A stretch of 23,752 nucleotides of DNA, from IMG/VR virus record IMGVR_UViG_3300048060_000074, one strand, 5' to 3'. The stretch's first letter is position 1. The number at the start of each line of letters is the position of its first letter. A program made the position numbers and the translations under genes. The stretch is from a virus. The notes under the pieces are model-generated. The model was not told the DNA's origin. It saw nothing but the letters and a program-made list of their open reading frames with translations, and ran no database searches. Below are positions 53 to 21,740 of this stretch, in pieces.

Positions 53-81
53 TTGACATATAGCGTGGTATATGCTATAAT
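53..81 (+). promoter_or_regulatory. Consensus sigma70/sigmaA promoter with extended -10
   Basis: TTGACA at 53-58, 17 bp spacer, TG at 73-74, TATAAT at 76-81. It lies inside an imperfect inverted repeat at 53-86 (TTGACAT-ATAGC...GCTATA-ATGTCAA). Confidence 0.85.
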
Positions 82-118
82 GTCAACATAAGAGCCTAGT
101 AGTCGTAGTCGCGAACTG

Positions 119-157
119 AAGGGCCGGGAGTGCATTCTCCCGGCCCTTTTTTGTTTT
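119..157 (+). terminator. Intrinsic terminator T1
   Basis: 10 bp GC stem GGGCCGGGAG (121-130) / CTCCCGGCCC (137-146), 6 nt loop, then TTTTTTGTTTT. Confidence 0.85.
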
Positions 158-164
158 CTGCTCA

Positions 165-180
165 TTTTACACGTATAAAA
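165..180 (+). repeat. 16 bp quasi-palindromic motif, copy 1 (TTTTACACGTATAAAA)
   Basis: Exact match to copies at 4846-4861 (rc), 12487-12502 and 21144-21159 (rc). Sits directly before the GGAG RBS of the protease gene. Confidence 0.9.
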
Positions 181-190
181 TGGAGTCCAA

Positions 191-1438
191 GTGCCAAAAA
201 TCTTAGATGATTGTGTCCAGTCTGTACTGAATGGCTGGCGCGAGAAACCAAAGAGTGCACCAAAGCGCAACAAGTCTGGCAAGCCAGTAAAGACGGAGCA
301 AGATCGTCGCTCGGTCGCGACAGCCATGTGTACCTCAAGCCTTCAAAAGGCCGGCAAGATGGAGTACGACGACGACGAGTATTACTTCTCTGAAGACGTG
401 GACTCTGCGAACCCGGCGATGACAGGTCTCGCTTTCACGAACAAGCCGTACATCCAGGGACTAGAAGAGATGTCCTTCGTGGATGGCAACGGCGAGCCGT
501 GGGCCGAAAACGCTGGCGCGAAGCTACTCAAGATACCTCTTCTTCTTCTCGGCAAATGGAAACACCGTCGAGGGATCCTCAATTTCACTAGCGGCTTTGT
601 CAGCAAGATGATCGAGAATTTCGCCAGTGGTGTTGTTGGCAATAAAATCTCTGCTGACGCCAGGCATATGCCCGGTGTTAGTGGGGCGCTTGCCTGGGTT
701 AGCAAGTTGTTTCAAGAAACCAGGATGGACGGCAAGGAGCAGGTATCTGTCATCGCGGCCCCGACAACCACTGGGCAGCAATTAGTAGAGGAACAGCGAT
801 TCCGTTACGGGTCAATTGAGTTCGTCCCCAACTTTAAGCGCCGACAGATCGTCGAGGCGCTTTCGATGGACGGCATTCAAGGCCCGTATGTCGAACTGGA
901 ATCTTGTCCAATAGATCAATCGGAATTTGAAGATTTGTTTGAGGAGGCAACTACTATGCCTGAGGATCAAGACCAGGTCTCCCTGGATGATTTCAACACC
1001 CTGAAGGATCAGGTTACACAACTGACCGCTGCATTGACTGCTGAACAGGCCACCGTGCGGGGGCTTCGCGTGCGGACAGCCAAGCAATTCGTCGAGGGCC
1101 TTATTATGAAGGCTGAGGCGTATCGTGATGGCGATGGACGCGGGCACTCCAAGGTGTTTCTGGACTGGATGAACAGCATCCTGCTATGCCAGCCAGTCGG
1201 AGAAGGTGACGAGTCGATCTCCCTGGAGAACAAGAACGAGGTCGCCGACGTTCACGCGTATTATCGGCGAGGGATTGCGTGGCTTGCGAACAATGTGCCC
1301 GGAGCAGGCCCCAGCCTGAACCCGCCAGTAACGCAGCCCGACAAGGATCGTCCAGTAAACGACTTGTCCGTCGAACTCGAGCTCGACGAAGATGACATGC
1401 GCGAGCTCGACGACGTGTGGGCCATGGCGGCGGCTTAG
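191..1438 (+). CDS. Prohead protease/scaffold, Mu gpI-like (apparently circularly permuted)
   Basis: GTG start after GGAG. Motifs GKWKH..G, MIENF, ISADARH, ALAWV, FRYGSIEF and GLAFTNKPYIQGL resemble Mu-like I proteases. Acidic/coiled-coil C-terminal half; lies upstream of the decoration and capsid genes. Confidence 0.75.
   Translation: MPKILDDCVQSVLNGWREKPKSAPKRNKSGKPVKTEQDRRSVATAMCTSSLQKAGKMEYDDDEYYFSEDVDSANPAMTGLAFTNKPYIQGLEEMSFVDGNGEPWAENAGAKLLKIPLLLLGKWKHRRGILNFTSGFVSKMIENFASGVVGNKISADARHMPGVSGALAWVSKLFQETRMDGKEQVSVIAAPTTTGQQLVEEQRFRYGSIEFVPNFKRRQIVEALSMDGIQGPYVELESCPIDQSEFEDLFEEATTMPEDQDQVSLDDFNTLKDQVTQLTAALTAEQATVRGLRVRTAKQFVEGLIMKAEAYRDGDGRGHSKVFLDWMNSILLCQPVGEGDESISLENKNEVADVHAYYRRGIAWLANNVPGAGPSLNPPVTQPDKDRPVNDLSVELELDEDDMRELDDVWAMAAA
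956..1438 (+). CDS. Nested in-frame scaffolding protein (internal start), 160 aa
   Basis: GAGGAGG at 941-947, 8 nt before an in-frame ATG at 956 (MPEDQDQVSLDDFNTLKDQVTQLTAAL, coiled-coil). Analogous to Mu I/Z and lambda C/Nu3. Confidence 0.6.
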   Translation: MPEDQDQVSLDDFNTLKDQVTQLTAALTAEQATVRGLRVRTAKQFVEGLIMKAEAYRDGDGRGHSKVFLDWMNSILLCQPVGEGDESISLENKNEVADVHAYYRRGIAWLANNVPGAGPSLNPPVTQPDKDRPVNDLSVELELDEDDMRELDDVWAMAAA

Positions 1439-1453
1439 CCTAAGGAGGGCAAC

Positions 1454-1843
1454 ATGCCTTACAGAACGACAAGAACGCACAGGCAACACCACGAGGTGGT
1501 GCGCGACCTGCACGTCTCCAGGCTCGCCAGCCGGCTATTCGATTCGAGCTATCTGGCTACGAATGCGTACCAAGAGAAGTACGCATACGCGGGGATGATC
1601 GTCGCGCTGGACTCTGCCACGTCAAAGTATGTGCCCTACTCGGTTGCGGCCAGTTACGGCACTGGGTCCGATACCGCAATCGGGCTTCTGGTAGAACCAG
1701 AAGATATGACCTGGGGCGACAAGGCCATCGCGCCGGCGTGGCACTTTATCGCTGTAGAACAGTACTGCTTCGTCTACGGCTCGGCTATCGGTACTATACC
1801 GGCAGCCGTCAAAACCGCTCTAGACAACAGCGAGTGGACATAG
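1454..1843 (+). CDS. Head decoration protein (lambda gpD-like)
   Basis: 129 aa, between protease and capsid genes. AGMIVALDSATSKYVPY...GTGSDTAIGLL pattern is typical of decoration proteins; AAGGAGG RBS. Confidence 0.7.
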   Translation: MPYRTTRTHRQHHEVVRDLHVSRLASRLFDSSYLATNAYQEKYAYAGMIVALDSATSKYVPYSVAASYGTGSDTAIGLLVEPEDMTWGDKAIAPAWHFIAVEQYCFVYGSAIGTIPAAVKTALDNSEWT

Positions 1844-1852
1844 GAGAGTAAA

Positions 1853-3052
1853 ATGGCAACTTTTCCAAACCCTTTCACCCGCGTATGGATGGATGCGGCG
1901 ATTGAGCGTAGGCCGACCAGACCTATGATCAAGCAGGGCTATTTGTGGACAAAGTATTTTCCCATGAAAACCGTGTACGACTTTGAGTTGACCTGGGACT
2001 ATATCCAAGCAGCCAACCCGCTTGCGGGACTGTATTCCCACGACGGTGTGCCGATTCCTGGGACCGACACGGACTATGAGCAAAGGCTCGTAGACATCTC
2101 CCACGTCATGGCGAGCAGGACAATCAACCAAAACACCGTGATGAAACTCCGTCAGGCCGGCGAGCTACGCATGAGCAGCGGAAACAGCCTGGTGAAGAGT
2201 ATTCGCCAGCGATATCTTGGCAAGGTCGCCGAAAAGTTGGCATCGTGCCAGGACGAGGTCGATGGTACGATGGAGTACCTGTCCATGGCCGCGCTCCAGG
2301 GCTCGATTGCCTGGCCGCCGACCACCGCAGCCGGTGGCGCAATCGCCAACCCGCCTGCCTCCTGGGGCAACATCGCATTCACCCTTAGCATGGGCTTCCG
2401 GGCCAATTTTGTCCAGGATGTCTCTACTCTCGTCGGTTGGAATAGCAAGGCCGGAGCTCAGGTTATCTGGAGCACTGTCGCGACCGCCAACCCGATCAAG
2501 GACTTCCAAGTCATCCGGGAGCTTATCAACAAGACCACCGGGCTTAGCGCCAGGAATGCGACTGTCATCATGGGTTCTGACATCTTGAGCCTTATGGCAG
2601 AGAACACCGAGGTCCTAAGGTGGATCCGTGGAACGCAGGGGCCGGCAATCGAGTCGACCCAGAAGTTCATCGACACAAACCTGCTAGAGGACGCCCTGAA
2701 GACCAGGCTCGGTTGGAACATCGAGACCTACGACGCGAGATGGACCTACCCGACGGCCAGCACGCTTGGCTCCGAGTCCGGCGTGACCCACAACCTGATC
2801 GAGTTTTTGAAGACGGGCAAGGTAATCATCATCCCGGAAGGCGCGCTGAGTGACGGGTACTCGTATATGGCGTCGGCCCCAGACATGGCGGGCAATATGG
2901 CGAGCGGCAAAGACCCGGATTCGGGCGGTCTGTACACCTGGTCGAAGCAGATGGACGTACCCCCGTGGACTGCGGTGATGGGCGTTGGATGCCACTGCTT
3001 CCCGATACTCAAGACAGTCGAGGAAATATTCGTCTTGGACGTCTTGAACTAG
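1853..3052 (+). CDS. Major capsid protein (lambda gpE-like, HK97 fold)
   Basis: 399 aa, follows the decoration gene. LWTKYFP, EYLSMAALQGSI, WST..TANPIKD, IETYDARW and C-terminal FPIL..VEEIFVLDV match the Phage_cap_E pattern. Confidence 0.85.
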   Translation: MATFPNPFTRVWMDAAIERRPTRPMIKQGYLWTKYFPMKTVYDFELTWDYIQAANPLAGLYSHDGVPIPGTDTDYEQRLVDISHVMASRTINQNTVMKLRQAGELRMSSGNSLVKSIRQRYLGKVAEKLASCQDEVDGTMEYLSMAALQGSIAWPPTTAAGGAIANPPASWGNIAFTLSMGFRANFVQDVSTLVGWNSKAGAQVIWSTVATANPIKDFQVIRELINKTTGLSARNATVIMGSDILSLMAENTEVLRWIRGTQGPAIESTQKFIDTNLLEDALKTRLGWNIETYDARWTYPTASTLGSESGVTHNLIEFLKTGKVIIIPEGALSDGYSYMASAPDMAGNMASGKDPDSGGLYTWSKQMDVPPWTAVMGVGCHCFPILKTVEEIFVLDVLN

Positions 3053-3064
3053 ACGAGGCGGACC

Positions 3065-3667
3065 ATGCCACCGACCACACCGTACAGCACGTCGAAACAG
3101 GCTGCGTACCTGCTCAAGACGATGTTTAGAAACACTCGTCCTGGGCCGAGCACGCCTGTGACCGATGAGGAGTTCACGCAGATGATACAGTGGTGCGACA
3201 GTGTCATCGACATGAACTTTTCATCGGTTGGTTACATCGTGCCGTTTGCGACGCTGTCCGGCGAGACGTGGCCGACGCATCAGACCAACTGGACGGCATA
3301 CCTCAGCGCGGTATCGGCTGCTGCGATGGCGGGGGGCTACATTCTCGCCCCCGCCCCTGCGATGATGCCCAGCCAGGTACGAGGCGGACAGAACATCTAT
3401 GCCTCGATGATCAACCAGTTTTTCGTGTCGATAGGGAAGCACGGGTACCACTTTCGCGCGCAGTACTATCGAGGTACGAAAGCAGAAAAGTGGCTGACCA
3501 CGCCGCAGGGCCCAAGAACTGACTTTATGTCGGACTATCTCGACCCGACCAGGTATGAGTTGCTGAGTGCTTACACGGACCGCATCGTGGAGCTTTTTGG
3601 CGATGTGGGTGACCTGGACATCGAGTGGGATTACCTTTACTCGTTGAGATCTGTGAGTGCGTCCTGA
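3065..3667 (+). CDS. Head-tail adaptor (Mu gp36/DUF1320-like)
   Basis: Directly after the capsid gene; N-terminal YST...STPVTDEE..QMIQWCDSVID...VGYIVP pattern. Confidence 0.55.
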   Translation: MPPTTPYSTSKQAAYLLKTMFRNTRPGPSTPVTDEEFTQMIQWCDSVIDMNFSSVGYIVPFATLSGETWPTHQTNWTAYLSAVSAAAMAGGYILAPAPAMMPSQVRGGQNIYASMINQFFVSIGKHGYHFRAQYYRGTKAEKWLTTPQGPRTDFMSDYLDPTRYELLSAYTDRIVELFGDVGDLDIEWDYLYSLRSVSAS

Positions 3668-4224
3668 TGAAGGTGCTTAAAGACGCCTTTCCAAGGCTGC
3701 AAAGATGGATCATGCGTGTCCAGGAACGCAAGGTCGATAAGGAGTATGAAGCTGCCGTTGAGGGGCTTGACGTCTTGATGGATACCGTGCGAGAATTTCA
3801 ACCTATCGGGCAGCTTGACCCACTTGTTATCGGGGGTTGGGCAACAAACCCGAATAGACATGAACGGCCCAGCATCCGGCAAGGTCTTGTTCCTATAGAG
3901 TTTGGGTGGCACTATGAGGCTGAGCGAACTGACCGTGGTGCCGAAATGCACATATCGTCTGAGTCGGAACACATTTCTCTATTCACATACTGGACTGGAA
4001 GATCATACCTTGGAATTCGTCCTGGCGCGGCCCAAGTAGCGTCGAACCCGCCAAGAACTCTGGCCTTCTGGAGTGGAGGGCCAAGATTTCCGAGATCGAC
4101 TGCGCCGCATGGATTTGAAGTAGAAACCGACTTTATGCAAGACGCCTTCGACAGCTCTCGCCGCGATATGAGACGGTCGGCCAGGAGGAAGCTGCGAGAG
4201 TTGTTGGTAGAGGTTCGTCTGTGA
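3667..4224 (+). CDS. Putative neck/tail completion protein
   Basis: Start reassigned to ATG 3667, which overlaps the upstream TGA. Position and basic C-terminus (DFMQDAFDSSRRDMRR) resemble HK97 gp10/Mu gpG-type proteins. Confidence 0.45.
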   Translation: MKVLKDAFPRLQRWIMRVQERKVDKEYEAAVEGLDVLMDTVREFQPIGQLDPLVIGGWATNPNRHERPSIRQGLVPIEFGWHYEAERTDRGAEMHISSESEHISLFTYWTGRSYLGIRPGAAQVASNPPRTLAFWSGGPRFPRSTAPHGFEVETDFMQDAFDSSRRDMRRSARRKLRELLVEVRL

Positions 4225-4766
4225 ACGAAGACGCCGCCGTGCAGGCAGTGTACACAGTCATTAACGCCAACGAGGCAACGCTTATATCAGGATTGCTATC
4301 TGGCGGTACACTGAGGGAGGTGTCACACCTCACGCCAACAATACTCTACACGCCGGCTGCGTACTATGCGGTTGGGGTGCACTGTGAGAGGGCCAGGGAG
4401 CACGATCATCCAGGACTCGCCAACGTGACCAGCACGGCGAACTCGCCGGACTATGTGGAATATCCTATGCTCGTCCGGGTAGCGGACGCCGTATATTCAG
4501 AGCCAAACGAGGATATTCCATACGACGTAGCACACTCGAATTTTCGCAAGTTCACAGATAGGTTAGTGCGGCTGCTGCGCGAGACGACGGTGTGGTTCCC
4601 GGATGCGGCGACGCGACCGAGGTTCCGAGTTAAGGAAGATCGCACTCTAGGCAAAGTGTTCGAGAAAAATAACGTCGCACCGTTCATAGAGACGGATGCC
4701 TATGTGTTGGGCGCGGAGATCAGGTTTGTTCTGGTAGACTGGTGTTCAGACAGTAGCCTGATCTAG
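4221..4766 (+). CDS. Putative tail terminator protein
   Basis: 181 aa, GTGA overlap with the upstream gene, located just before the tail tube gene; alpha/beta pattern. Confidence 0.45.
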   Translation: MNEDAAVQAVYTVINANEATLISGLLSGGTLREVSHLTPTILYTPAAYYAVGVHCERAREHDHPGLANVTSTANSPDYVEYPMLVRVADAVYSEPNEDIPYDVAHSNFRKFTDRLVRLLRETTVWFPDAATRPRFRVKEDRTLGKVFEKNNVAPFIETDAYVLGAEIRFVLVDWCSDSSLI

Positions 4767-4999
4767 TGGGCGACTGGACACTGGTTCAGTCAAGCAGGCG
4801 GTATGGGGAATGGAGTTATCAGTCCCCCACTGACGGAGAAACGTATTTTATACGTGTAAAACCGCCAGAATGGATTCCCTCGGCAGACATACCAAAGCTG
4901 ATGGAAAGACGAGAGATCGGATGCTGCGGGGATGCACCGATTACTGTGATCGAGATCGTTAGACCAACGGTGGACCAAATGAGGACAAAGCCTGGGTAG
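4766..4999 (+). CDS. Small hypothetical protein (77 aa, IGCCG motif)
   Basis: Fills the gap between terminator and tube genes with a TAG/GTG overlap; contains motif copy 2. Confidence 0.55.
   Translation: MGDWTLVQSSRRYGEWSYQSPTDGETYFIRVKPPEWIPSADIPKLMERREIGCCGDAPITVIEIVRPTVDQMRTKPG
4846..4861 (-). repeat. 16 bp motif, copy 2 (inverted, intragenic)
   Basis: TTTTATACGTGTAAAA on +, the exact reverse complement of copy 1. Confidence 0.9.
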
Positions 5000-5024
5000 G
5001 TTTGCCGACAAGGAGTAGACAAAA

Positions 5025-5663
5025 ATGGTAGGAACATATCTTACGCCTACGGCACCAGTGGCGACGACAACTATGCTCATGAAGCCAGAGACCGCTGTTT
5101 TGGTTGGTACTGCCAACCAGTACGGGTCGCTTGAGACCTCAAGCTGGGTCTATGCCACCTACGGCGTGTCCATCGGGCTATCGGCCTCGTTCCAGATGGG
5201 GATCCTGAGCGAACTGACCTTTGCCCATGTGCCGGCGTTTGAGGCCGTCGAGTCATACAATGTGACTGACAATTCGGTGTATGAGGTCACTGGCGAGGAG
5301 ACCACGGCCACGGTTGGCATACGGCAGTTCGATTACCGCGTGATCGAGCTCGCTTTGGGTACAGGAACTCGAATTATGCTTGGCGCGGCGGAAGCAGTCT
5401 ACCCATTCGGCGGTGGCTGCACAATGATTCAGCGTCCGTACTCTCTAGAGTTCACCAACGAGTCATGTTCTGCGCCTAGCGCCCAGGACATCACCGTGGG
5501 GATCACCGGCGGCTGTATCACCCTGTACGATTGCTTCATATCGTCCGGGCTAGAGTGGGCCATGACCGCCAAGGAGGGGTCTGCCGTGACGCTGGAGTTG
5601 ACGGCGCTGCCGATTTTGGCGAGGGTGAGAGGCCGCAGGCTTGGCTGCCTTTACATCTATTAG
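5025..5663 (+). CDS. Major tail tube protein
   Basis: 212 aa, beta-rich; strong AAGGAG RBS; upstream of the chaperone and tape measure genes. C-terminal ITLYDCFISSGLEWAMTAKEGSAVTLELTAL resembles siphovirus tube proteins. Confidence 0.75.
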   Translation: MVGTYLTPTAPVATTTMLMKPETAVLVGTANQYGSLETSSWVYATYGVSIGLSASFQMGILSELTFAHVPAFEAVESYNVTDNSVYEVTGEETTATVGIRQFDYRVIELALGTGTRIMLGAAEAVYPFGGGCTMIQRPYSLEFTNESCSAPSAQDITVGITGGCITLYDCFISSGLEWAMTAKEGSAVTLELTALPILARVRGRRLGCLYIY

Positions 5664-5715
5664 TATTGATACGCCCCAACAGGGGCAACTCTGGTAAACT
5701 GAAAGGATTTGTGTA

Positions 5716-6186
5716 ATGCCCGGGTCAGAACCAGTTGTAATTACGCTTGGAACGAGAAAGGTCATATTAAAACCGCCGCTAGGCATGAAGTCGTTCAGGA
5801 TGATGCCAAAGATCCTGAGGCTTCTGTCAGAGTGGGTTTACGCCGCCATACAGGCCGGCATTCCCCTTCACAAATGGTTTTTGGAAGGGGAAATTGGCCA
5901 GATTGAGGCCGGCAACACACTCAGGGCGGTTTTGTTCATCTCCGAGAAGATGGACGAGCAATGGGACATCATCTCCAAAGAAATCGTCCCGTTCCTGTTG
6001 CAGTGCAATATCAAGGCACTTGATGAAGCTACGCCGAAAGAGATCATGGGATCTTTGTGGACATCTTTGAGTTTCCACGCTCCCTATGTGTTTGGCGAGG
6101 ATACCTCTGAGGCCCTAAAAAAATTGGTCGTCGCGGAGGAGGTCGAGACTCCGCAAGCGGACGAACCGATGATGGATTCGACCTAG
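5716..6186 (+). CDS. Tail assembly chaperone (gpG-like)
   Basis: Between tube and tape measure genes; contains slippery CTA AAA AAA TTG near its 3' end. Confidence 0.7.
   Translation: MPGSEPVVITLGTRKVILKPPLGMKSFRMMPKILRLLSEWVYAAIQAGIPLHKWFLEGEIGQIEAGNTLRAVLFISEKMDEQWDIISKEIVPFLLQCNIKALDEATPKEIMGSLWTSLSFHAPYVFGEDTSEALKKLVVAEEVETPQADEPMMDST
6117..6167 (+). other. Programmed -1 ribosomal frameshift site with 3' stem-loop
   Basis: A7 run at 6117-6123 in A AAA AAA phase. The -1 frame is closed by TGA at 6108-6110, then open to TAA 6680. Hairpin GCGGAG (6133-6138) / CTCCGC (6149-6154) follows. Confidence 0.8.
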
Positions 6187-6680
6187 AGAGGTCGGTCGCG
6201 CTGGTCTGTAGGCACTTTAACCTGTCCGCAGACTATGTCTATGACAAGCTGGAATGGGTTCGCTGGATCAGGATGCTTGCAGTCGCGCTCGACTTGCAAG
6301 AGCTCGAGGAGTACCATTTTTGGATACTCAGCCAGCAGGATCCAAAAAAGTTTCAGTGGTCATCGAGTGACCATGCAGGCACGCAGCCTCTAGACAAAAA
6401 GCCTGTCAACGAGCAAATTCTGGCGTTTGGGCAAGCACTCGCCGGGGGGAACGCCGCCGCACAGGTCAGAAGTGATATCTGGGAGTATGGCAAGGTGCGG
6501 GGCGCAGGGCAGGTGTTTGAGGCAATGAAGTGGGATGAGGTTACTGGTCAGCAGATCGGCATAGTATACATAGACCAGGACGGGGCGGAAGTGGATGTTT
6601 CGGGATACGTACTCGTCAAAAGTAACCACGAAGAGGCCCGTGCGAAGGCTAGTAGTGTGTTTGAAAACCTGAGGGCCTAA
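6123..6680 (+). CDS. Frameshift extension of the tail assembly chaperone (gpGT-like, about 321 aa fusion from 5716)
   Basis: The -1 frame reads IGRRGGGRDSASGRTDDGFDLERSVALVCRHFNLSADYVYDKLEWVRWIRML and continues into the listed 6273-6680 ORF. Confidence 0.75.
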   Translation: MGRRGGGRDSASGRTDDGFDLERSVALVCRHFNLSADYVYDKLEWVRWIRMLAVALDLQELEEYHFWILSQQDPKKFQWSSSDHAGTQPLDKKPVNEQILAFGQALAGGNAAAQVRSDIWEYGKVRGAGQVFEAMKWDEVTGQQIGIVYIDQDGAEVDVSGYVLVKSNHEEARAKASSVFENLRA

Positions 6681-6697
6681 CGGCCCTTTTTTCTTTT
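6672..6697 (+). terminator. Intrinsic terminator T2 inside the tail operon
   Basis: AGGGCC-TAAC-GGCCCT followed by TTTTTCTTTT; overlaps the GT stop codon. Confidence 0.6.
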
Positions 6698-6767
6698 AAT
6701 TTGGCTATTCCCCCTTGGGGGCTGTCTCACCCGGGCGCAGCCCCCTCGGGGGTAGCAAAAGAAAATC

Positions 6768-12479: not shown

Positions 12480-12486
12480 AGTTTGG

Positions 12487-12502
12487 TTTTACACGTATAA
12501 AA
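12487..12502 (+). repeat. 16 bp motif, copy 3
   Basis: TTTTACACGTATAAAA; 12487-12514 matches 165-192 at 27/28 positions. Confidence 0.9.
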
Positions 12503-12518
12503 TGGAGTCTAAGTCTAA

Positions 12519-15059
12519 ATGGCAGCAGGAATCTTCACAGTCATACCACGTTCTCCGGGTATTGCGTCTATCACGTGCTCTATCATCGGGGACGGCGGGA
12601 CGACAGATTATCAGGTCATCCCCGACTCGGTAGACATCCACGAGGTGGAGCGAATCAAGATCGCTTATGCGGAGGGCAAGGTCGGCGGGCATGTCCAGGG
12701 CATCACTCGGTCTTTGGCCCAATTCCAGTTCGATGTGGTGATATTCGGCACGAGTGAGGCAAATGCTCAAGCTAACATGCGCACGTTCCAGCGGGCGATC
12801 ACCGACCCTATGGGTGGGCATGTACAGTATCGCCCTTCTGGCCTTGGGGGAAGTGTTATCTCTACATACTACCATTACCTGATGTCCCCGCCGATGCAGC
12901 TTTTTCCTGTTGCCGGTGTTCAGGGTCGTGCCCGTGCCTGGACGCGACCTGGTGGCGCCATAACAGATGAGGCGTATCGCTATCGGGCCACGTTGATGAC
13001 CAAGGCGTGGGGGACAAGTGACCCAACCTCGTATAGCTCCATCGTTACGTCGACAGGGGTGGACAACGAGGGAGGGACAATGGTTGTGCCTGCCTCCAGT
13101 ATTAAGGGCGATGGCGCGCTTGGGGTGCTAGAGGTGGTCGGGACAATGAGCTCTGGCGATGACGTGCTCAAGAACGCCATTGTCTACAAGCGAAAGATGC
13201 GGGTTGGCAATAACTCTGACCTCGACTGGATCGAGGCTGAAAATATGCAGGATCCTGTCGGCGGAAATTATAACTATGCGGTGTTTTGTGGTATTGTTTG
13301 GAGAGCGCCGGAGGGAGACACAAATTATCCTATTGATATTGTAGACGACGGGTTTGATACAGACAGTCTGACGACAGCAAAAATGCAAGCGGACGGCGAC
13401 GATCTGCGCGTATTCAATGGGGGAGTGGAGATTGATCGCTGGCTATATGACATGGACAATGCTACAACTCAGGTATGGTGCAACCTGGACTTTGCGGTGG
13501 CGATCAGCATGACGCTGAATGGGGGCATATCTAGCAGCATTCAGTCAGTGGTTGTAAACGAGAGCATCGCCGGAATGCCTAGCACTGGCATCATTAAGAT
13601 AGATTCGGAGTACCTGTCCTATAGCTCGAAAAACAATTCCAGTAAAACGTTTACGATATCTAGTCGCGGCTATGGAAATACGACCGCAGCCTCTCATTCA
13701 GATTCAGTTGCTACTTACTGGGTGCAGCATGACCTGTGGATTGTTTATGGAGACGCGGGCGCTTCGACCCCTGCCGTTAATGATGACTACGAGCCAGCGT
13801 TTGAACTGAGTTCTACAAACGGCAGTTGGGTTTACCAAGAATTTGGCGAAGATGACGGGTTCAGAACTGCCGGATGGATTGTTTATAATGGCTGGTTGGG
13901 GTACTACAATGGCAACCGTCGCGCCGCCGCTGATCCCTGGATCGAGATCGGGCTCGGGCCTGCGGCCTTGGGTGAGTTATATTGGTATTTGCACAACCCA
14001 TGCCAGATTACCAACGCGAATTTTACAAACGGCGAAAGCCTTCGGAATGTTTCTGCCGGGTTCTGGACTGGCGAGATTCGGTCGAGCCAAAACGGATCGG
14101 CATGGACGACCGAATACACAATTCCCGATCCTGCCGTGGCAGGCGTATGGGACTCGTGGAGCAGAAACGAGGCAATTACGGCTGGTGCTACTTACGTCTC
14201 AATGTATCTTCAAATAAGCACCGATGTGCTCAACCAAGATTCTCTTGAGGCCGCAGATTGCACATTGACTCTTAACCCATCATACACTCCAGTCGTAACT
14301 GTAGAAGCGGAAATTGCTTACGCCTGGACGCAAATTGGCGATGCGGCTGCTTCTGGAAATAATTATATGAGGCTTGGCATTCCGGTATCGTATCTTGCGA
14401 TAACATCATCCAACACCGCCGGAATGGATCGTACATATACCGGCAAAGTCTCTCCTCTTGTCATTGCAAGATGTGATGTTGGAACAAACTACAATGTCCA
14501 CTGGGTGGTGTATGTGTCAAACAGGGTTGCGTCCTGGCAAACATCTAGGGTGGTCTTGCTGGAAGGGTCAACTTATTGGAAGTGCTTGTATCAGTTTGGG
14601 GAGATAGACCTGCCTCCGTTTCCAATCCCAGATTATGTTTCCGAAGCGAATATAGACAGCTATATTGATACGGTGTTTATCGAGCTTACGTTCACCAGAA
14701 TATCTGGTGGCGGCAACATTGAGGTGGACGCTGTTTGTCTTGCCAAAGCAGACGAATGGATTTCTCATGTCTATAACTCTGTAGACTCGACAGGTTTGCA
14801 AGAATCAACGGATGACACGTTGGTCATAGACGCTGTCGAGAATATCACCCATACCAAGGATGCTTCCGATCTAGTGAAACAGTACTGGGAACGACAAGGC
14901 GTACCACTTAGCCAGCTTGCTTTTGATAAGCGGTTCGATCACCGCCTCAGGGTGGTTGGATTTATGGATACGTCTACTTATAAATATACACCGACATACA
15001 CATTTAACGTTGTTCTCACAGGACTTTTTCTAACCATCTTTCCTTTTTCCGAGACTTAG
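12519..15059 (+). CDS. Distal tail (Dit-like) protein with inserted accessory domains
   Basis: First gene after the tape measure gene; 846 aa, beta-rich. Contains a DUF2341-like segment (KMQADGDDLRVF...VWCNL...IVYGD) and EAE..DAAASG carbohydrate-binding-like motifs. Confidence 0.55.
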   Translation: MAAGIFTVIPRSPGIASITCSIIGDGGTTDYQVIPDSVDIHEVERIKIAYAEGKVGGHVQGITRSLAQFQFDVVIFGTSEANAQANMRTFQRAITDPMGGHVQYRPSGLGGSVISTYYHYLMSPPMQLFPVAGVQGRARAWTRPGGAITDEAYRYRATLMTKAWGTSDPTSYSSIVTSTGVDNEGGTMVVPASSIKGDGALGVLEVVGTMSSGDDVLKNAIVYKRKMRVGNNSDLDWIEAENMQDPVGGNYNYAVFCGIVWRAPEGDTNYPIDIVDDGFDTDSLTTAKMQADGDDLRVFNGGVEIDRWLYDMDNATTQVWCNLDFAVAISMTLNGGISSSIQSVVVNESIAGMPSTGIIKIDSEYLSYSSKNNSSKTFTISSRGYGNTTAASHSDSVATYWVQHDLWIVYGDAGASTPAVNDDYEPAFELSSTNGSWVYQEFGEDDGFRTAGWIVYNGWLGYYNGNRRAAADPWIEIGLGPAALGELYWYLHNPCQITNANFTNGESLRNVSAGFWTGEIRSSQNGSAWTTEYTIPDPAVAGVWDSWSRNEAITAGATYVSMYLQISTDVLNQDSLEAADCTLTLNPSYTPVVTVEAEIAYAWTQIGDAAASGNNYMRLGIPVSYLAITSSNTAGMDRTYTGKVSPLVIARCDVGTNYNVHWVVYVSNRVASWQTSRVVLLEGSTYWKCLYQFGEIDLPPFPIPDYVSEANIDSYIDTVFIELTFTRISGGGNIEVDAVCLAKADEWISHVYNSVDSTGLQESTDDTLVIDAVENITHTKDASDLVKQYWERQGVPLSQLAFDKRFDHRLRVVGFMDTSTYKYTPTYTFNVVLTGLFLTIFPFSET

Positions 15060-15061
15060 AT

Positions 15062-17122
15062 ATGTCGTATCGGCCTTTCATTCCAGTTCAAATCGAAACC
15101 TACAACGAAGGCAACCGGCAGAGTATCATAGGTGATGCTACCGGGCTTTCTTTCTCGTCCCACTACGGCGAGGGCGGGAGCGGCTTCGGGTTCTGCAAGT
15201 TCGTGCTTGGACGCGAGGTCGGCAATGATTACAGAGACATAGGTTTTGGCTACCGTCTCATTGTGCGCAAGTACCTTGGCACGATCTTGTTCGATGGGCA
15301 GATCAGACAGATCGGCGAGAAAGCAGGTGCAGGTGGAGACGAGATAGAGATTGGCGCGCTTGGACACCTCATAGTTGCAGAGGACGACGAGTTCACTCGC
15401 CGCATCTGTGATACCAGGGCCAGCGAGTGGGAGATGGATAGCGAGGTGCCCACCGGCAGCTTCCAGCCCGGCAAGTTCACCGTCAACAGTGGCGCAACCG
15501 GCATCGTGATATACTCCAGCAATAACCAGGTTCTATCTGCTGGCGACTATACACAGGTCGTCTATGATTTTGAATCAGACGAGAATGGGGAACGGCTAAA
15601 GTGTAACCTCTCGATGGTACTTGGGTATGGAAATCTCAACGGCGCAGGCCCAAACTTCTCCGCCGAGATAGCGTCTATTTCGGGCACAGTGATCACCTAC
15701 ACCAATGACACTGGCGAAAACAACCTTGCGGCTGACCAGATTCTAGCCAACATCACCAAAAAGGGCACAGCCACAATCTCGTCGAACAACACTGGGGCCG
15801 ACACGATCACTGTGTCAGATGCAGATCACATCGACAAGTGGGAGACTGGGGATACTGTTTTTGTGGGCGCTCCGTACTTTGAGGCTACGTTCTCGTCCTT
15901 CGCTGGAACGACCCTGACGTACTCTGGCCCAACTGGCGAAGCTGAGGCGGCAGCGGCCACCGGGTGGGTCGTCCATAACGTCGACGAGGACGAGTACGCC
16001 GAGGTCGCAAGCTGGAACGAGGGCAGTGACCAGTTTGACGTAACAAACGCCGGAGACATCACCGGCAACTGGACGAACGGCGACACGATCCGGATCTATA
16101 CCCCGTTTGCGTTACAAGTCAGGGAAGAGGACGGCACGATGATTTGGCCTGCTTCCGACTGGCGGGAAGGCGCGATACCTAGGTCATGGACGGCGGTCAA
16201 TGTAACCCCATCCTCCGCGTCTACAAAGTTCATAGTACGGCTCACGTGTTACGTCGCTGGCAGCGCAGGCGAGTCCACGTTTGCCAACCTGAACTCGCTC
16301 AGGGTCTACTCGGTTACAGACGAAACGGTAACATCTCAAACCCTGGCTACTGAGATACTGAGCATCCTAAGTGCTGCCGGACATGATCTGAGCAGTGATA
16401 CTGATGATATCGAGGCGATTTCCAAGACGCTAGAGCCAGCCGTGTTCGAGTACGCAGCGCCATCCCAGGTGATGTCCTGGGTATGCAAGGCCGGGGACGG
16501 ATCGGGGAACCTGCTTGCCTGGGGAGTTCGGTTGACTGATGGCAGGAAGTTCTTTCTCGAAACGCAGGATAGGTCCACGATTGACTATAAGGTCCGTCGG
16601 GATGTCCCTGTTGAGGCCAGTGTTTCTGGCGATGTTCAGGGCTCGGTGCAGCAGGTCCGCATCGTGTACGAGGATGAGTTGGGCGTTCGACAGCACACTG
16701 ATTGGCTATCAGACGAGGATGCCTATTTTGCGGGCCACTTCCGCCGACAAAGTGTAAAGGTGGATAACATCAACACCGCAGACGAGGCTGACGAGCTCGC
16801 TGCCTTGTTTCTCAGTGAGAGCAAGCAGGCAAAGCGACAGGCCAACTATACTGTCAGCGAGGGCGCGGTGTTTACGCCAGCCGACCTGATCGTGCCAATC
16901 GACGAGGTGAAGGCCACTGGGCGGATGGTGACCATCGAAGATTGGCGCTCTGTGGAGACTGGAGGGTCGACGACGGACATTCGTGACTCGTGGACGCAGG
17001 AGAACATCGTCGTGGTGCAGATCGATTATGAAAACAGGACTGCACAACTAACGCCTGCTGGAGCGAAGGACACCTTTACCAGGTACATCGCCGAGCTATC
17101 CAGGATAAGGAGCGGTTTATGA
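15062..17122 (+). CDS. Tail tip hub (Tal/gp27-like) protein
   Basis: Second gene after the tape measure gene. N-terminal LFDGQIRQI..IEIGALG and C-terminal ADELAALFL patterns of hub proteins; internal tandem duplication. Confidence 0.55.
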   Translation: MSYRPFIPVQIETYNEGNRQSIIGDATGLSFSSHYGEGGSGFGFCKFVLGREVGNDYRDIGFGYRLIVRKYLGTILFDGQIRQIGEKAGAGGDEIEIGALGHLIVAEDDEFTRRICDTRASEWEMDSEVPTGSFQPGKFTVNSGATGIVIYSSNNQVLSAGDYTQVVYDFESDENGERLKCNLSMVLGYGNLNGAGPNFSAEIASISGTVITYTNDTGENNLAADQILANITKKGTATISSNNTGADTITVSDADHIDKWETGDTVFVGAPYFEATFSSFAGTTLTYSGPTGEAEAAAATGWVVHNVDEDEYAEVASWNEGSDQFDVTNAGDITGNWTNGDTIRIYTPFALQVREEDGTMIWPASDWREGAIPRSWTAVNVTPSSASTKFIVRLTCYVAGSAGESTFANLNSLRVYSVTDETVTSQTLATEILSILSAAGHDLSSDTDDIEAISKTLEPAVFEYAAPSQVMSWVCKAGDGSGNLLAWGVRLTDGRKFFLETQDRSTIDYKVRRDVPVEASVSGDVQGSVQQVRIVYEDELGVRQHTDWLSDEDAYFAGHFRRQSVKVDNINTADEADELAALFLSESKQAKRQANYTVSEGAVFTPADLIVPIDEVKATGRMVTIEDWRSVETGGSTTDIRDSWTQENIVVVQIDYENRTAQLTPAGAKDTFTRYIAELSRIRSGL

Positions 17123-19374
17123 CCGTCATATCGCTTCAAGAAGTAGATAGAGAGATCAGGCGGCTGGTACGGTCTGTCGGCAAGCTGGAGGAAAAAGACC
17201 GGCGGATCATGGAGCGCATCGCTGCCGTATCAGGCAATGCGGTTCTGGACGAGCTAACGCTGAACACCCTCAATGTCACAACCATCGTCGTTGGAGAAAT
17301 TGTGGATGGTGTTGACGTGGGCGCCTGGAATGCCGACCAGTTCGTTGTCATGGCGCTAAGTAGCGAGATGCCTAACGAGAGGGTCTTGACCGCTGGTGAT
17401 GGCATAGATGTGACGGACGGCGGCGCAGGCAGCACCGTGACTATTGCCGTCGATGTAACTGACATCCTGGGCACTGGAATAGGCGAGGATGGTGCCAACA
17501 ACCTCGTGCTGCCAACTCCTGGCACATTGACGGTCTCCACGGGCAATGCAGAGGCAGCGCCGCATACGCACGCGGTCACATCTTCCAGCAATCCAGGAGT
17601 GGCAGCGTCTATTTTGGCGACTGACGCGAGCGGGAACGTGACTGTTCAGGACATCACCGCAGCCGATGATATGTATCTTGGTGATATTCTGTACCGCAAT
17701 GGCGACACAAACACATACATCAACGGCAATGCCGATCAGTGGATTCACTATGCTGGCGGCGCAGAGTTTATGCGGTTCACCGAAGCGGCGCAGGACGAAA
17801 CCAGATTTAACAACGCTGGTGCTGACATAGACTTCATTGTCGAGGCCAGCGGTGTGGCAGACGCGTTTCAGGTGCTTGGCAGCAATGGGCAGATTACCCT
17901 TGGTGCGCTTGGCGCCGGGTTTGTTCAGTCAAGTGCTGGCGGCGTCCTATCATCGGCAGCGATCGGGGCTGGCGATCTGCCAGCGCATACCCACGCCGGG
18001 GCTGGACAGGGCGGGCAACTGGATTGGGACGACGTGTGGAGCGACGCTGTACACACGCACGCGAATGCTGGCGAGGGCGGCGCTACGATCAGCGCAACGC
18101 TCTACGATGCCGCAGCGACAGTCAGCGCCGTTTTCACGCACTCAGCTAATATTGCGCTTGACGATGGTGTGGGGGATTCGCCGGTACTTCAGTTTGTCGG
18201 CGGCTCAAACGAACTGGCGACGCTCTATTTCGATGATACAGCACGCGCGCTAGTGACTACTATCGAGGATAATCAAGCAATCGCCTACAGTATACTCGAC
18301 GATGGCGCTGGCGACCTGTTCATGCAAATTGTTACCACGACAGGCAGCGAGGCCGTTGTGTTCAACAACGGAGGCGACGATGTCGATTTCCGCGTCGAGG
18401 GAACCGGAGAAGCAAATGCCCTAGCCGTCCAGGGCAGCGACGGTTTTGTCGGCGTCGGCACGGCTGCCCCAGGCGCGAGATTGGAAATCAGCGGAGGCCG
18501 AACGCTGGAAGTAGATGTGGATTCAATCGCTGGAATCGCAATAGTCCAAAGTGACGATGCGACAACGTCGCTTGATATCAATAATGTAGCCATTGGCGGG
18601 GACACACGAATATACGCTACCGAGGACATCCATTTTAGGACAGCGACGGTGGATCCAGCGGCCACCATTGTAAGGGCCGGAACGTTCTACATCAACGAGT
18701 CAACAAATGCAGACATGGCGGGGTCTGGCCTGACGATAAACCAAGGCGTGAATGATGACGAGATCCTTGCCGTCAAAAGTAGCGACATCGACCACCCATT
18801 CACCGACCTTGCCGAGAACGATACCTATGGCACATTCACAAAAGCCAACGCGCTTGGCGGCGGCCTCCAGATACGAGGCTACAGAGACGCAGACGGCGAC
18901 AACGATTTGGCGGTACAGATCGCCGGCTTTTTGGGCGAGGCGGCAGACACTACAAAAGACACTTCAGGCCGTGGCATAGTCGAGATCTTCGCAGCGATAA
19001 CAGATGGCGGTACGGGCATCGCAGTCCCAGGGGCCGATGCCAATGTGCTCACGATACGAGTCGGCGGAGGGACAACCCGGTTTATTTTCGATGTGGAGGG
19101 CAGCGCGCATGCCGATGTCGAGTGGACGACTTTTTCAGAGCATGACGACATCGCCTTGCTAGGCGCTCTAGAGCGAGAATTTGAACGACGGCGCGATCCC
19201 GCTCGGGCTATGGTTGGCGGTAATGAGGATCGCCATGTCCTAGAGGATGCAAAGATCGTCACTTTCTACGATGATGGACCCCGAGGGATGGTGAACACGA
19301 CGCGGCTGGCGATGTTGCTTGTCGGCGCGCTACGCCAAGCTGGGGAACGAATAGCACTACTGGAGGGAGCATAA
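17119..19374 (+). CDS. Tail fibre / receptor-binding protein with chaperone-like C-terminus
   Basis: 751 aa, Gly/Ala/Asp/Thr-rich. N-terminal coiled coil, HxH motifs, FNN.G.D.DF.VE repeats, VGVGTAAP motif, C-terminal VNTTRLAMLLVGALRQ..RIALLE. Confidence 0.75.
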   Translation: MTVISLQEVDREIRRLVRSVGKLEEKDRRIMERIAAVSGNAVLDELTLNTLNVTTIVVGEIVDGVDVGAWNADQFVVMALSSEMPNERVLTAGDGIDVTDGGAGSTVTIAVDVTDILGTGIGEDGANNLVLPTPGTLTVSTGNAEAAPHTHAVTSSSNPGVAASILATDASGNVTVQDITAADDMYLGDILYRNGDTNTYINGNADQWIHYAGGAEFMRFTEAAQDETRFNNAGADIDFIVEASGVADAFQVLGSNGQITLGALGAGFVQSSAGGVLSSAAIGAGDLPAHTHAGAGQGGQLDWDDVWSDAVHTHANAGEGGATISATLYDAAATVSAVFTHSANIALDDGVGDSPVLQFVGGSNELATLYFDDTARALVTTIEDNQAIAYSILDDGAGDLFMQIVTTTGSEAVVFNNGGDDVDFRVEGTGEANALAVQGSDGFVGVGTAAPGARLEISGGRTLEVDVDSIAGIAIVQSDDATTSLDINNVAIGGDTRIYATEDIHFRTATVDPAATIVRAGTFYINESTNADMAGSGLTINQGVNDDEILAVKSSDIDHPFTDLAENDTYGTFTKANALGGGLQIRGYRDADGDNDLAVQIAGFLGEAADTTKDTSGRGIVEIFAAITDGGTGIAVPGADANVLTIRVGGGTTRFIFDVEGSAHADVEWTTFSEHDDIALLGALEREFERRRDPARAMVGGNEDRHVLEDAKIVTFYDDGPRGMVNTTRLAMLLVGALRQAGERIALLEGA

Positions 19375-19631
19375 TGGCAACGCCTAAAACGCTCACGGCA
19401 TACGACGCCCAGCAACATCGGCTAGTGTTGCTCCAACAGGGCACGGCGATCCACGTGGAGCGGGCCTACTCACTAGTTGACGATGTAGGTGATGCGCTCG
19501 ATCCGCCGACTGGCGGCAAGCTCGTCACGGATATTCAATGGAGCGCCGTTCCCGCAGGTGTCCAGGCAGCGCTCACAACGATCAACACCTGGACATACAA
19601 TCAAATTCTGTCCAAGGAAGGAATGACGTAA
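19374..19631 (+). CDS. Hypothetical protein (possible fibre-associated protein)
   Basis: 85 aa, TAATG coupling to the fibre gene, GGAG RBS. Confidence 0.6.
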   Translation: MATPKTLTAYDAQQHRLVLLQQGTAIHVERAYSLVDDVGDALDPPTGGKLVTDIQWSAVPAGVQAALTTINTWTYNQILSKEGMT

Positions 19632-19856
19632 ATGCACATCATAGTGCTTTTGAGCAAGCAAGGCGAGAAGATCACAGTCAGCTATGAGCTTGGCGCTGGT
19701 GTAGGGAAAGAACTTGCCGCGAACGCCCTCCGGGCAGCGGAGTCGTTGATCCAGAGGGAAATTATAGAGGCAAGGATCAGACAGGAGTTACAGCCGACCA
19801 TCGAGGCAGAAACGGGCCAGGAGGTACAAGATGAGCAGGCCAGCAGGGCGCCTTAA
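19632..19856 (+). CDS. Hypothetical protein
   Basis: 74 aa, abuts the upstream stop codon, AAGGA RBS. Confidence 0.55.
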   Translation: MHIIVLLSKQGEKITVSYELGAGVGKELAANALRAAESLIQREIIEARIRQELQPTIEAETGQEVQDEQASRAP

Positions 19857-20214
19857 CGCTTCTTTGGTCATCGAGGAATTCTTGCTCGACGTGTGGGAGG
19901 GTATTCCTGCCAGCACGGACTCGGTGGCTAATTCGTTGCAGCGGTTCCGTTCCGAGTTCGAGGCAATCGTATACCGCCTGAAGGAGCAACACGAGCAGGA
20001 AGGGCAAAAGATGGACCTGCTCACCGGCCAGTGGAAAGAACTCCACGACCGCGAGGGCCGGACGATAGATCGGATGGTCGACAAATTGGCGTACCTGAAG
20101 ACCATCGAGATCGCCGCCGGGGATACGGCTACCAGAGCTACGGTGATCGAACCACTGGTTCGCCACCTGAGAGAGTTTCTGAAGGAAATTGGAGATGAAG
20201 ATGACAGTTCATGA
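19831..20214 (+). CDS. Hypothetical all-helical protein
   Basis: 127 aa, AGGAGG RBS, overlaps both neighbours, amphipathic helices. Confidence 0.6.
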   Translation: MSRPAGRLNASLVIEEFLLDVWEGIPASTDSVANSLQRFRSEFEAIVYRLKEQHEQEGQKMDLLTGQWKELHDREGRTIDRMVDKLAYLKTIEIAAGDTATRATVIEPLVRHLREFLKEIGDEDDSS

Positions 20215-20539
20215 GAGGATGCTCAACAGCCTGTCGCTAGGCATAGTCTTGTCCACGAAGGACGGGCGGATACTGGAAGCAAATCAATCCGCGCAGGAGA
20301 TGCTGGGCTATACACTGGAAGAGCTAAGGGGAATCCACGCGCGCGATTTGTGGTTATATCCCGAACAACGACCAGCCATTATGCGTGAGGTACTGAGTAG
20401 CTGCGAGGCTGTTTTGAAGCAGATAGAGCTAGTCGGGCATGACGGGGTTGCTTTTTGCTTTGAAGTGAGCATGAAGCATTTTGGGAATGGAGAGCACGAC
20501 GCCGTGATGTCCCAGTTGAAGTTCGCCGGGGAAGAGTAG
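20201..20539 (+). CDS. Stand-alone PAS domain protein
   Basis: ERMLNSLSLGIVLSTKDGRILEANQSAQEMLGYTLEELRG..ARDL..PEQR...IELVGHDG..FCFEVS is a canonical PAS S-box signature. Start could be 20195 or 20201 (GGAG at 20191). Confidence 0.85.
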   Translation: MTVHERMLNSLSLGIVLSTKDGRILEANQSAQEMLGYTLEELRGIHARDLWLYPEQRPAIMREVLSSCEAVLKQIELVGHDGVAFCFEVSMKHFGNGEHDAVMSQLKFAGEE

Positions 20540-20558
20540 GTTCCTAGAGGAGATTGGC

Positions 20559-21113
20559 GTGCCGTCCTGGATCAACCAATACGGACCATGGTTTGCCGTG
20601 GTCTTCCTGTTGATTCTATTTTCTGACAAAGTAGCCGAAAGCATGCAAAAGGTGCTCGCGGTTTTTTCGCCTGGCGTGGCTGAGAAGCTACGACACGCTA
20701 AGGAAACTGCCCAGTGGCGGCGCGAACAGATCGAACGGGAGTATGTGGATACGGTCAAGAGCCAGAAGGACTTCATTTTGGAGATGAAGAGCCAGGCTCA
20801 GGAAGAGCGCGACCGCGCAGACAAGCAACGCCTCGACTGGCAGCAGCGGGCCGATGAGCGGGACCGTCTCTATCGTGAGGAACGCGACCACTTGCAGGTG
20901 AAAATCGAGAGGCTGATGGAACAGCGCACCGATGATTATGAGCGGCTGGGCCGCCAGTTTGCTGAGCTGGAAACGCGGAATATCGACATGAACAGGCAGC
21001 AAATCGAGTTGCTTGGCATGCAGACCAGGCGGCTGGATCTGATCAGTCTCACACTTGCCAGCGAGAAAGGCTTTCCTAGTCGGCAGATGTTGCCTGTGAA
21101 GGATGGAGAGTAA
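20559..21113 (+). CDS. Single-TM coiled-coil membrane protein (holin-like candidate)
   Basis: N-terminal hydrophobic YGPWFAVVFLLILFS, loosely like BhlA-type holins, then a long charged coiled coil; last gene of the late block. Confidence 0.5.
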   Translation: MPSWINQYGPWFAVVFLLILFSDKVAESMQKVLAVFSPGVAEKLRHAKETAQWRREQIEREYVDTVKSQKDFILEMKSQAQEERDRADKQRLDWQQRADERDRLYREERDHLQVKIERLMEQRTDDYERLGRQFAELETRNIDMNRQQIELLGMQTRRLDLISLTLASEKGFPSRQMLPVKDGE

Positions 21114-21115
21114 AC

Positions 21116-21147
21116 AAAAAACCCGACCTTCGCGAAGGTCGGGTTTT
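21116..21147. terminator. Bidirectional intrinsic terminator
   Basis: Perfect 30 bp palindrome AAAACCCGACCTTCGCGAAGGTCGGGTTTT (21118-21147) between convergent genes. Confidence 0.88.
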
Positions 21148-21159
21148 ATACGTGTAAAA
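21144..21159 (-). repeat. 16 bp motif, copy 4 (inverted)
   Basis: TTTTATACGTGTAAAA on +; its first four T's are the + strand U-tract of the terminator. Confidence 0.9.
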
Positions 21160-21164
21160 TCAAA

Positions 21165-21740
21165 CTAGAATGGCGGCGTGTCTAGTATCCAGGAATCGAG
21201 GACGCCAGACGGCGGAACGACCCGTCCTACAGGACGGAAAGTCTCGTAGAATTTCGACCACCCGGGCCCTACTTGCACTATGCTTACCCCTTTCTTGCAT
21301 CGCCCCTTTATCACGCCATCACCACGGATGAATTCTGGTCTCTTTGTTAGGTGGCACACCCAGAACTCCCGATATAGGTCCTCATACCAATTGTACCCGA
21401 GAACACTCTTGACGATAAGATTTGCTTTGGTGACCCTTCCGGCATCGTACTCCTCGACCAGCTTCCGTGCCCACAGATGGGGTTTTGCCAGCTTGTTGCT
21501 TTTGGACGACGGTGGATTTAGAAACACTGTGCCATGCCATGGCCCTCCCAGTGCGTTGTCGCCCTTTCCATAGTACGTGATTGCCTCGACGGCCAGGTTG
21601 GCCTCGTAACAGCTTGCTGGGTCGAGGTCGATAACGCCTAGGTTCGCGCGCACAAGCTCGACGAGCCAGGCTGGTGTATACCACTCCTCGCTCTCTGCCG
21701 TGAACGTGGTCACATGCGTTTGCTGATTTACTGCACGCAT
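21165..21740 (-). CDS. Phage-type DNA N6-adenine methyltransferase-like protein
   Basis: EEWYTPAWL...IDLDPAS...WHGTVFLNPP pattern of the phage Dam family; catalytic motif reads NPPS; GGAGG RBS. Confidence 0.75.
   Translation of the reverse strand: MRAVNQQTHVTTFTAESEEWYTPAWLVELVRANLGVIDLDPASCYEANLAVEAITYYGKGDNALGGPWHGTVFLNPPSSKSNKLAKPHLWARKLVEEYDAGRVTKANLIVKSVLGYNWYEDLYREFWVCHLTKRPEFIRGDGVIKGRCKKGVSIVQVGPGWSKFYETFRPVGRVVPPSGVLDSWILDTPPF

Follow-up and report, generated by a model that had tools for sequence, protein, structure and literature searches.

What reads a short palindrome that recurs, letter for letter, at distant places in the genome of a phage? The question is raised by a 23,752-nucleotide stretch of DNA from the virus record IMGVR_UViG_3300048060_000074 (the window), in which the 16-mer TTTTACACGTATAAAA occurs in four exact copies, numbered here 1 to 4 from left to right (Table 1). 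A previous inspection of the letters without database searches (the sequence-only reading) had reported these four copies, all of which are confirmed at their positions and on their strands, and had taken them for binding sites of one phage protein acting in partition, in repression or roadblocking, or in late activation. In our analysis a network of parS-like sites for one protein is kept as the favoured reading, while the partition, stoperator and promoter mechanics that were attached to it are not. We give about an even chance to the explanation that the palindromes are loading sites, similar to those of KorB and Noc, for a ParB-type protein of 337 amino acids (aa) encoded in the same genome, and that they serve genome-wide control or organisation of the phage DNA and not ParABS partition.

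The window corresponds to bases 46,346-70,097 of a JGI metagenome contig, 3300060479 Ga0589155_0000006 (89,481 base pairs, bp), with 0 mismatches, and the source is an uncultured phage of about 89 kilobases (kb). Coordinates on this contig are called record coordinates below, and the stretch analysed runs from base 1,173 to the end (88.3 kb). Allowing up to three mismatches, we found no additional match in the window; dinucleotide-preserving shuffles gave a chance expectation of 0.05 matches, and the observed 8 strand-matches were reached in 0 of 100 shuffles. The description of the motif as AT-rich in GC-richer DNA holds, at 75% A+T in a window of about 54% G+C. Two details of context hold as well: copies 1 and 3 have 27 of 28 bases in common, in an extended identity that runs into GGAG, and copies 3 and 4 are each preceded by a TAG stop and (A)GTTTG-like bases.

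Over the 88.3 kb there are 18 perfect copies of TTTTAYACGTRTAAAA and one further copy with three mismatches, against 0.00004 predicted from base composition. All copies in the window carry the same asymmetric pair, and the sequence-only reading had seen meaning in this. Over the contig the pattern does not persist, with 12 copies C/A-asymmetric at the Y/R positions, three C/G-perfect and three T/A-perfect, so that the constancy in the window is a sampling effect and the two half-sites are each independently C or T. The symmetric unit is the half-site TTTTAYAC. Relative to local transcription, the asymmetric copies are oriented 6 versus 5. When folded as RNA, three of the four motif variants gave 0 kcal/mol and the best gave -1.7 kcal/mol; an RNA hairpin was ruled out on this folding energy. 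Symmetry without RNA structure points to double-stranded DNA elements with a symmetric dimer as their predicted reader.

The placement of the sites is as distinctive as their sequence. Fifteen of the 18 are intergenic, though only 8.3% of the record is non-coding, and gaps of 16-60 bp hold a site in 10 of 19 cases, each then consisting essentially of a stop codon, the palindrome, a ribosome-binding site (RBS) and a start codon. Eleven sites end 10-28 bases ahead of a start codon and are immediately followed by GGAG or GAGG. The seven sites without an adjacent start include two or three inside genes, one at a convergent terminator (copy 4) and two upstream of promoters. That most sites lie between stop and RBS is likely because this is almost the sole non-coding DNA available. 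An extended palindrome was considered and rejected, the flanks being merely biased R/S by the neighbouring stop codons and RBSs.

Along the genome, the sites follow one another at roughly 5 kb, with a largest gap of 8.7 kb and a coefficient of variation of 0.52. This spacing is more even than chance under uniform placement (P = 0.009 and 0.003) and under placement confined to the real intergenic gaps (P = 0.00025 and 0.0005), and for that reason looks like coverage of the whole genome and not like control of a few genes. At three strong promoters a site precedes the -35 box by exactly 17 bp (record 19,708 on the minus strand, 19,759 on the plus strand and 75,352 on the minus strand), and the last of these promoters is upstream of the operon that encodes RNase H and the ParB-like protein. 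Two sites lie 69-83 bp downstream of promoters, and the remaining ones are kilobases away from any. A host sigma-70 promoter within the motif was also tried as a candidate and rejected, as no conserved -35 box was found at the right spacing around copies 1 and 3.

Chromosomal parS is near-universal, and the likeness to it that the sequence-only reading pointed out is real. Compared with parS (TGTTNCACGTGAAACA), the palindrome TTTTAYACGTRTAAAA has the same length and the same ACGT centre, and 14 of 16 positions agree (Y taken as C, N free); the half-site TTTTAYAC differs from that of parS, TGTTNCAC, at one specified base, the G. Among bacterial genomes, clustered occurrences of the palindrome are found upstream of parA operons in two of three cases. 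On a plasmid-like contig of Acetobacter pasteurianus, three perfect palindromes within 150 bp (L168:3390-3535) stand upstream of parA and a 246-aa gene, next to RepA, and on a plasmid-like contig of Bacillus mobilis two palindromes (L209:5933-6081) stand ahead of parA and a 118-aa gene that is not recognisably ParB-like. The palindrome is used as a partition-locus site elsewhere, so the label 'parS-like' is reasonable.

A ParB-like gene was sought, and one is present outside the window. A scan for the box II motif (..AGDRRIEAAK..) identified a protein of 337 aa, whose minus-strand gene (record 73,775-74,788) lies 3.7 kb to the right of the window. It matches PHROG 4715, 'ParB-like partition protein', with E = 1.6e-7. 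Aligned by hhalign as a single sequence with 20 canonical ParBs, the 337-aa protein itself being excluded from that set, it gave a probability of 95.6% and E = 1e-8 over residues 47-199, a span that covers GDRR (box II), DNLHA (box III; ENLQR in ParB) and the helix-turn-helix (HTH). A word-index homologue search with the protein returned only itself; a full HMMER pass over 1.8 billion representative proteins returned four non-self hits, all of the ParB family by Pfam, and the nearest remote homologue is on a 1.8-kb contig. Judged from its sequence, the protein is a divergent, orphan member of the ParB family.

Structure prediction fits this assignment. The alignment-based fold reached a predicted local distance difference test (pLDDT) score of 74 and had Noc, Spo0J, ParB and KorB as its best structural matches (Foldseek), which are partly circular because the alignment is ParB-rich; the single-sequence fold reached a pLDDT of 38 only. 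Modelled as a homodimer, the protein scored 0.50 against 0.00 for the best control, with the interface formed by residues 279-325 in C-terminal helices, agreement between runs in at least 37% of contacts and a partner pLDDT of at least 65. Of 30 proteins whose solved structures pair one chain with itself, 20 reach the mark for a homodimer, as against 1 of 23 known as single chains; the run used an alignment made for this analysis, and as ParB dimers have already been solved, the pass may in part reflect structures familiar to the predictor and shows likeness more than proof. The choice between parS and the Noc-binding site (NBS) is set by four positions, which are R-T-A-G in ParB and Q-K-K-R in Noc, and parS-type binders keep Arg 173 and a small residue at 201, paired with A and not C at core position 6 (PMC7383237). 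Mapped through the hhalign alignment, the specificity positions of the 337-aa protein read R-R-E-S, in which position 173 is Arg and position 201 is small and polar, and this combination appears weakly compatible with the A retained at core position 6 of the phage site.

From these observations we infer that a dimer of the ParB-like protein would nucleate on each palindrome through its ParB-type HTH and, if the degenerate N-terminal nucleotide pocket still works, would close and slide along the neighbouring DNA. With sliding, no base of the genome would be farther than about 4.4 kb from a loading site. Direct control would fall on the three early promoters that have a site 17 bp ahead of the -35 box, among them the promoter of the ParB-like protein's own operon, and elsewhere the protein would occupy gene junctions. 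In the window, the junctions so occupied would be the entry to the head module behind a terminated leader (copy 1), the junction of tape-measure and tail-tip genes (copy 3) and the convergent terminator (copy 4).

This proposal has a precedent in KorB of the IncP-1 plasmid RK2, which loads at 16-bp OB sites, either promoter-proximal or up to more than 1 kb away, and silences promoters by sliding (PMC11790492). As in KorB-OB (PMC11790492), a ParB-family protein is found with one 16-bp palindrome repeated around a mobile genome, and sites both adjoin -35 boxes and lie hundreds to thousands of bases from promoters; loading and sliding, not looping, are what we propose here. The two systems differ in that KorB also partitions, together with IncC (a ParA), whereas no ParA was found in the phage, in that proximal OB sites lie 4-10 bp from the -35 box as against 17 bp, and in that no homologue of KorA or TrbA was recognised in the phage. 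The phage further differs in the viral nature of the genome that hosts the sites, in their number (18) and mostly stop/RBS position, and in the far more degenerate N-domain of its protein. With ParB-parS and Noc-NBS it shares the 16-bp palindrome with an ACGT centre and a protein that aligns over box II, box III and the HTH (PMC7383237, PMC8429893). Position 1 is T in the phage, not G or A, no ParA or ParA-binding motif was found, and the sites are evenly spread, whereas ParB sites cluster near the origin and Noc sites are excluded from the terminus (PMC7383237, PMC8429893). The sequence-only reading had also drawn a comparison with mycobacteriophage stoperators. In Cluster A mycobacteriophages more than 20 near-identical sites, like the 18 here, are found in promoters and short gaps genome-wide (PMC9283540). 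The analogy fails in its defining points: stoperators are 13-bp, asymmetric sites in one orientation for a monomeric immunity repressor (PMC9283540), whereas the phage sites are symmetric and orientation-neutral (6:5), and no such repressor was recognised.

A wider and more tentative picture, which we hold as possible but doubtful, is that a probably lytic 89-kb phage coats and times its whole genome with an orphan, highly diverged ParB-type clamp loaded at evenly spaced sites. This would be a viral form of KorB-like long-range silencing, connected with early promoters through the site at -61 and with late entry points that also have Q-type promoter-leader-terminator cassettes. Phages and prophages commonly encode orphan proteins of the ParB fold, whose roles are largely unknown (PMC12704722). 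Eighteen exact, evenly spaced parS-like sites with a single ParB-like gene make a compact and testable case, in which one protein, one 16-mer and three promoters could show whether viruses regulate or organise their own DNA with ParB clamps. To our knowledge, the ParB relative so far shown to silence genes over long distances by sliding is the plasmid protein KorB.

Several results weigh against loading by the 337-aa protein. Its Pfam HTH_ParB match (E = 0.001) is below threshold, at 19.6 bits against a cut-off of 22.6. In the nucleotide pocket, box II is present as GDRR, box III keeps the Asn with Arg replaced by Ala, and only an Arg of box I could be aligned; with the strong divergence of the protein, these degenerate boxes make clamp behaviour uncertain. 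The ParA-binding motif LG[KR]GL is absent from the protein. The equivalent of Arg 173 normally contacts G1 of parS, where the phage site has T. The 246-aa partner beside the Acetobacter array has no detectable ParB likeness, so the palindrome is not exclusive to readers with a ParB fold, and about 70 of the 83 non-structural phage proteins are without a family assignment, so that an unrecognised regulator is possible. Motif scans of IMG/VR returned only single, chance-level matches, with no other viral contig carrying more than one copy; a scan of metagenome contigs for the motif followed by YGGAG gave two chance matches only. Finally, in the sole diverged relative found, a 544-bp ENA contig (sample ERZ23498405) of about 86% DNA identity, copy 2 carries A in place of C in its central CG, which is invariant elsewhere (Arg to Ser). 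Conservation over the 16 bases of copy 2, with 1 change where about 2.3 were expected, was no better than that of the flanks in this one comparison. From the change in the core we conclude that single sites can be gained or lost by point mutation.

The same results bear on the rival explanations. It is unlikely, though well worth keeping in mind, that the sites are operators of a different dimeric DNA-binding protein, be it a small regulator of the phage that escaped recognition or a protein of the host, such as its own ParB or Noc, with the ParB-like protein doing something else. Symmetry, exactness and promoter-proximal placement would suit any dimeric regulator, the many unassigned phage proteins leave room for one, chromosomal parS is only one specified base per half-site away for a host ParB or Noc, and the bacterial arrays beside partners without ParB likeness keep such a reader alive. 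Even spacing throughout a genome would be unusual for a gene-specific operator, however, and no sequence-specific DNA-binding fold other than the ParB-type HTH is recognisable in the phage, whose site is parS-like. A dispersed centromere for partition of a plasmid-prophage, in which a ParA-type motor would take over the genome from the ParB-like protein, is quite improbable. It would account for dispersed 16-bp parS-like sites in a genome that encodes a ParB-family protein, it has a model in N15, where SopB uses four dispersed inverted-repeat sites (PMC7205306), and it would agree with the parA operons beside the bacterial arrays. Yet N15 is a linear plasmid prophage with SopA and four sites, whereas the 18 sites here far exceed the need. 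Among the 83 non-structural proteins we recognised no ParA/CbiA/AAA_31 match, integrase, other HTH, sigma factor or RNA polymerase. A motif scan of residues 1-80 in all called proteins gave no ParA-type (deviant) Walker A box. With the integrase, protelomerase and repressor also went unrecognised, leaving no sign of lysogeny. Partition of the N15 type, as the sequence-only reading had envisaged it, is unlikely because neither a ParA nor a lysogeny gene was found, and the ParA-binding motif is missing too.

The position of 11 sites just ahead of start codons, with GGAG or GAGG next to them and an RBS shared by copies 1 and 3, might instead suggest an element that acts on the mRNA upstream of the RBS, similar to the start-associated sequences (SAS) of Cluster K mycobacteriophages or to RegA/RegB-type targets. 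We think this very improbable, since single-stranded recognition needs no palindrome, the RNA is unfolded, orientation to the mRNA is random and seven of the 18 sites have no adjacent start. Although SAS are likewise short repeats just upstream of many starts that sometimes overlap the upstream stop, they are asymmetric, include the Shine-Dalgarno core, lie 3-7 bp from the start and keep to one orientation and one genome arm (PMC3203893); in the phage the Shine-Dalgarno sequence is outside the motif and the start is 10-28 bases away. Equally little probability goes to a promoter or activator site of the phage's own that would serve middle or late transcription, which the sequence-only reading had also entertained. 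The motif is AT-rich, contains TATAAA-like and TTTACA-like hexamers and stands at the module starts of copies 1 and 3, and at three promoters its centre is near -61, the classic class I activator position. A promoter is disfavoured because only 10-17 bases separate motif and start codon, so that a transcript starting downstream of the motif would lose the RBS. The gene-proximal half is GTATAAAA or GTGTAAAA without preference, the phage has no recognisable gene for a sigma factor or an RNA polymerase, and a promoter at copy 4 would run directly into a terminator. For the three sites at -61, activation is compatible with loading of the ParB-like protein. Least probable of all is a selfish or recombination-related repeat, a duplicated mini-palindrome or module-boundary sequence with no dedicated binder. 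Its case is made by the flanks that copies 1 and 3 share, by TAGTTTGA, common to copy 4 and a site at record 76,622, by two paralogous cassettes and by the lack of conservation of copy 2 in the relative, but even spacing, 18 exact copies with almost no decayed ones and the fixed 17-bp distance to three -35 boxes speak for selection at each site.

Table 1. The four palindromes in the window and the features next to them (window positions).
Feature	Position	Strand	Remarks
Sigma-70-type promoter, perfect	53..81	+	TTGACA, 17 bases, TATAAT, with TG
Leader intrinsic terminator	118..156	+	13-pair stem (118-149), T/G-rich tail TTTGTTT
Palindrome copy 1	165..180	+	9 bases past the T/G-rich tail (150-156); 1 base before GGAG (182-185); 10 before GTG (191) of the first head gene
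77-codon gene holding copy 2	4766..4999	+	Third-position bias of differences from the relative
Palindrome copy 2	4846..4861	-	Inside the 77-codon gene 4766-4999; reads ..YFIRVK..
Palindrome copy 3	12487..12502	+	7 bases after TAG of the 1903-aa tape-measure gene; 1 before GGAG; 16 before ATG of an 846-aa gene
Bidirectional convergent terminator hairpin, GC-rich, 22 bases	21122..21143		Separates the late operon from the leftward methylase operon
Palindrome copy 4	21144..21159	-	Abuts the bidirectional terminator hairpin and forms its + strand T-run; the leftward Dam methylase gene stops 5 bases away

Copy 2 is the one copy within a coding frame, as the sequence-only reading had it. The 77-codon gene lies between head-tail connector genes and a putative tail tube gene of 212 aa; one gene caller left it uncalled, and its codon score is weak. 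The diverged relative keeps the frame open (L250:244-477) at the same length and with 87% aa identity. Differences between the two fall at third codon positions in 22 of 34 cases, with 17 changed codons synonymous and 10 non-synonymous, and the neighbouring gene behaves similarly. This third-position bias shows the frame to be coding, and overturns the alternative that it is non-coding, which the codon score and third-position G+C content had suggested.

Copy 1 lies behind a unit of promoter, short leader and strong intrinsic terminator and just ahead of the RBS that serves the first head gene; with a transcription start placed about 7 bases past the -10 box, the leader is roughly 65 nucleotides long by coordinates. 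Three such units are found in the genome, at window 53-190, at L047:1183-1300 farther upstream and at record 4,409-4,126 on the minus strand (L065:16,960-17,243), all of them ahead of gene modules and all with the terminator tail CCTTTTTTGTT. The first two match best, with the same order of promoter, leader, terminator, palindrome and RBS and with AAGAGCCT also in common, and the third, at record 4,409, is a looser match. A 213-aa zinc-finger protein (L063:2196-2837) has a weak match to Q-like antiterminators (PHROG 127, E = 1e-5), and entry into the late genes may need antitermination in the style of lambda. A 13-base sequence with TGAC..GTCA symmetry, TTGACAAAYGTCA, covers the -35 box in exactly four early promoters (record 13,039, 19,696, 19,759 and 75,340; L065 and L053), occurs nowhere else in the genome and may be the operator of a second regulator.

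The phage encodes a terminase, a Mu-type portal, lambda-like head genes (a D-like decoration protein and an E-like capsid), the 1903-aa tape measure, tail-tip genes, a PAS-domain protein and a long island of glycosyl- and methyl-transferases. Neither a megablast of the window and a tblastn of the capsid against 50,697 phage records nor a capsid protein search of IMG/VR returned a relative. All long related contigs from other samples are the same phage, 99.97-100% identical, and therefore carry no comparative signal and no information on mosaic breakpoints. A Logan contig of this phage (L064:1-788) extends 788 bp beyond the end of the JGI record and holds a 181-aa gene and 0 palindromes, so that the JGI contig is incomplete or the genome circularly permuted.

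Some further genes may be recorded. The leftward gene block opens with two adjacent adenine DNA methyltransferase genes, one Dam-like (191 aa) and one of the D12 class (about 294-331 aa), at window 21165-22723 on the minus strand, directly beside copy 4. A stand-alone PAS-domain protein of 112-116 aa is encoded close to the late operon's end (window 20189-20539, plus strand), a place where one would look for lysis genes. Between the glycosylation island and the head genes, a leftward 642-aa gene contains internal DNA repeats of about 220 bp with 65-68% identity (record 39,212-40,029; L052:2073-2890).

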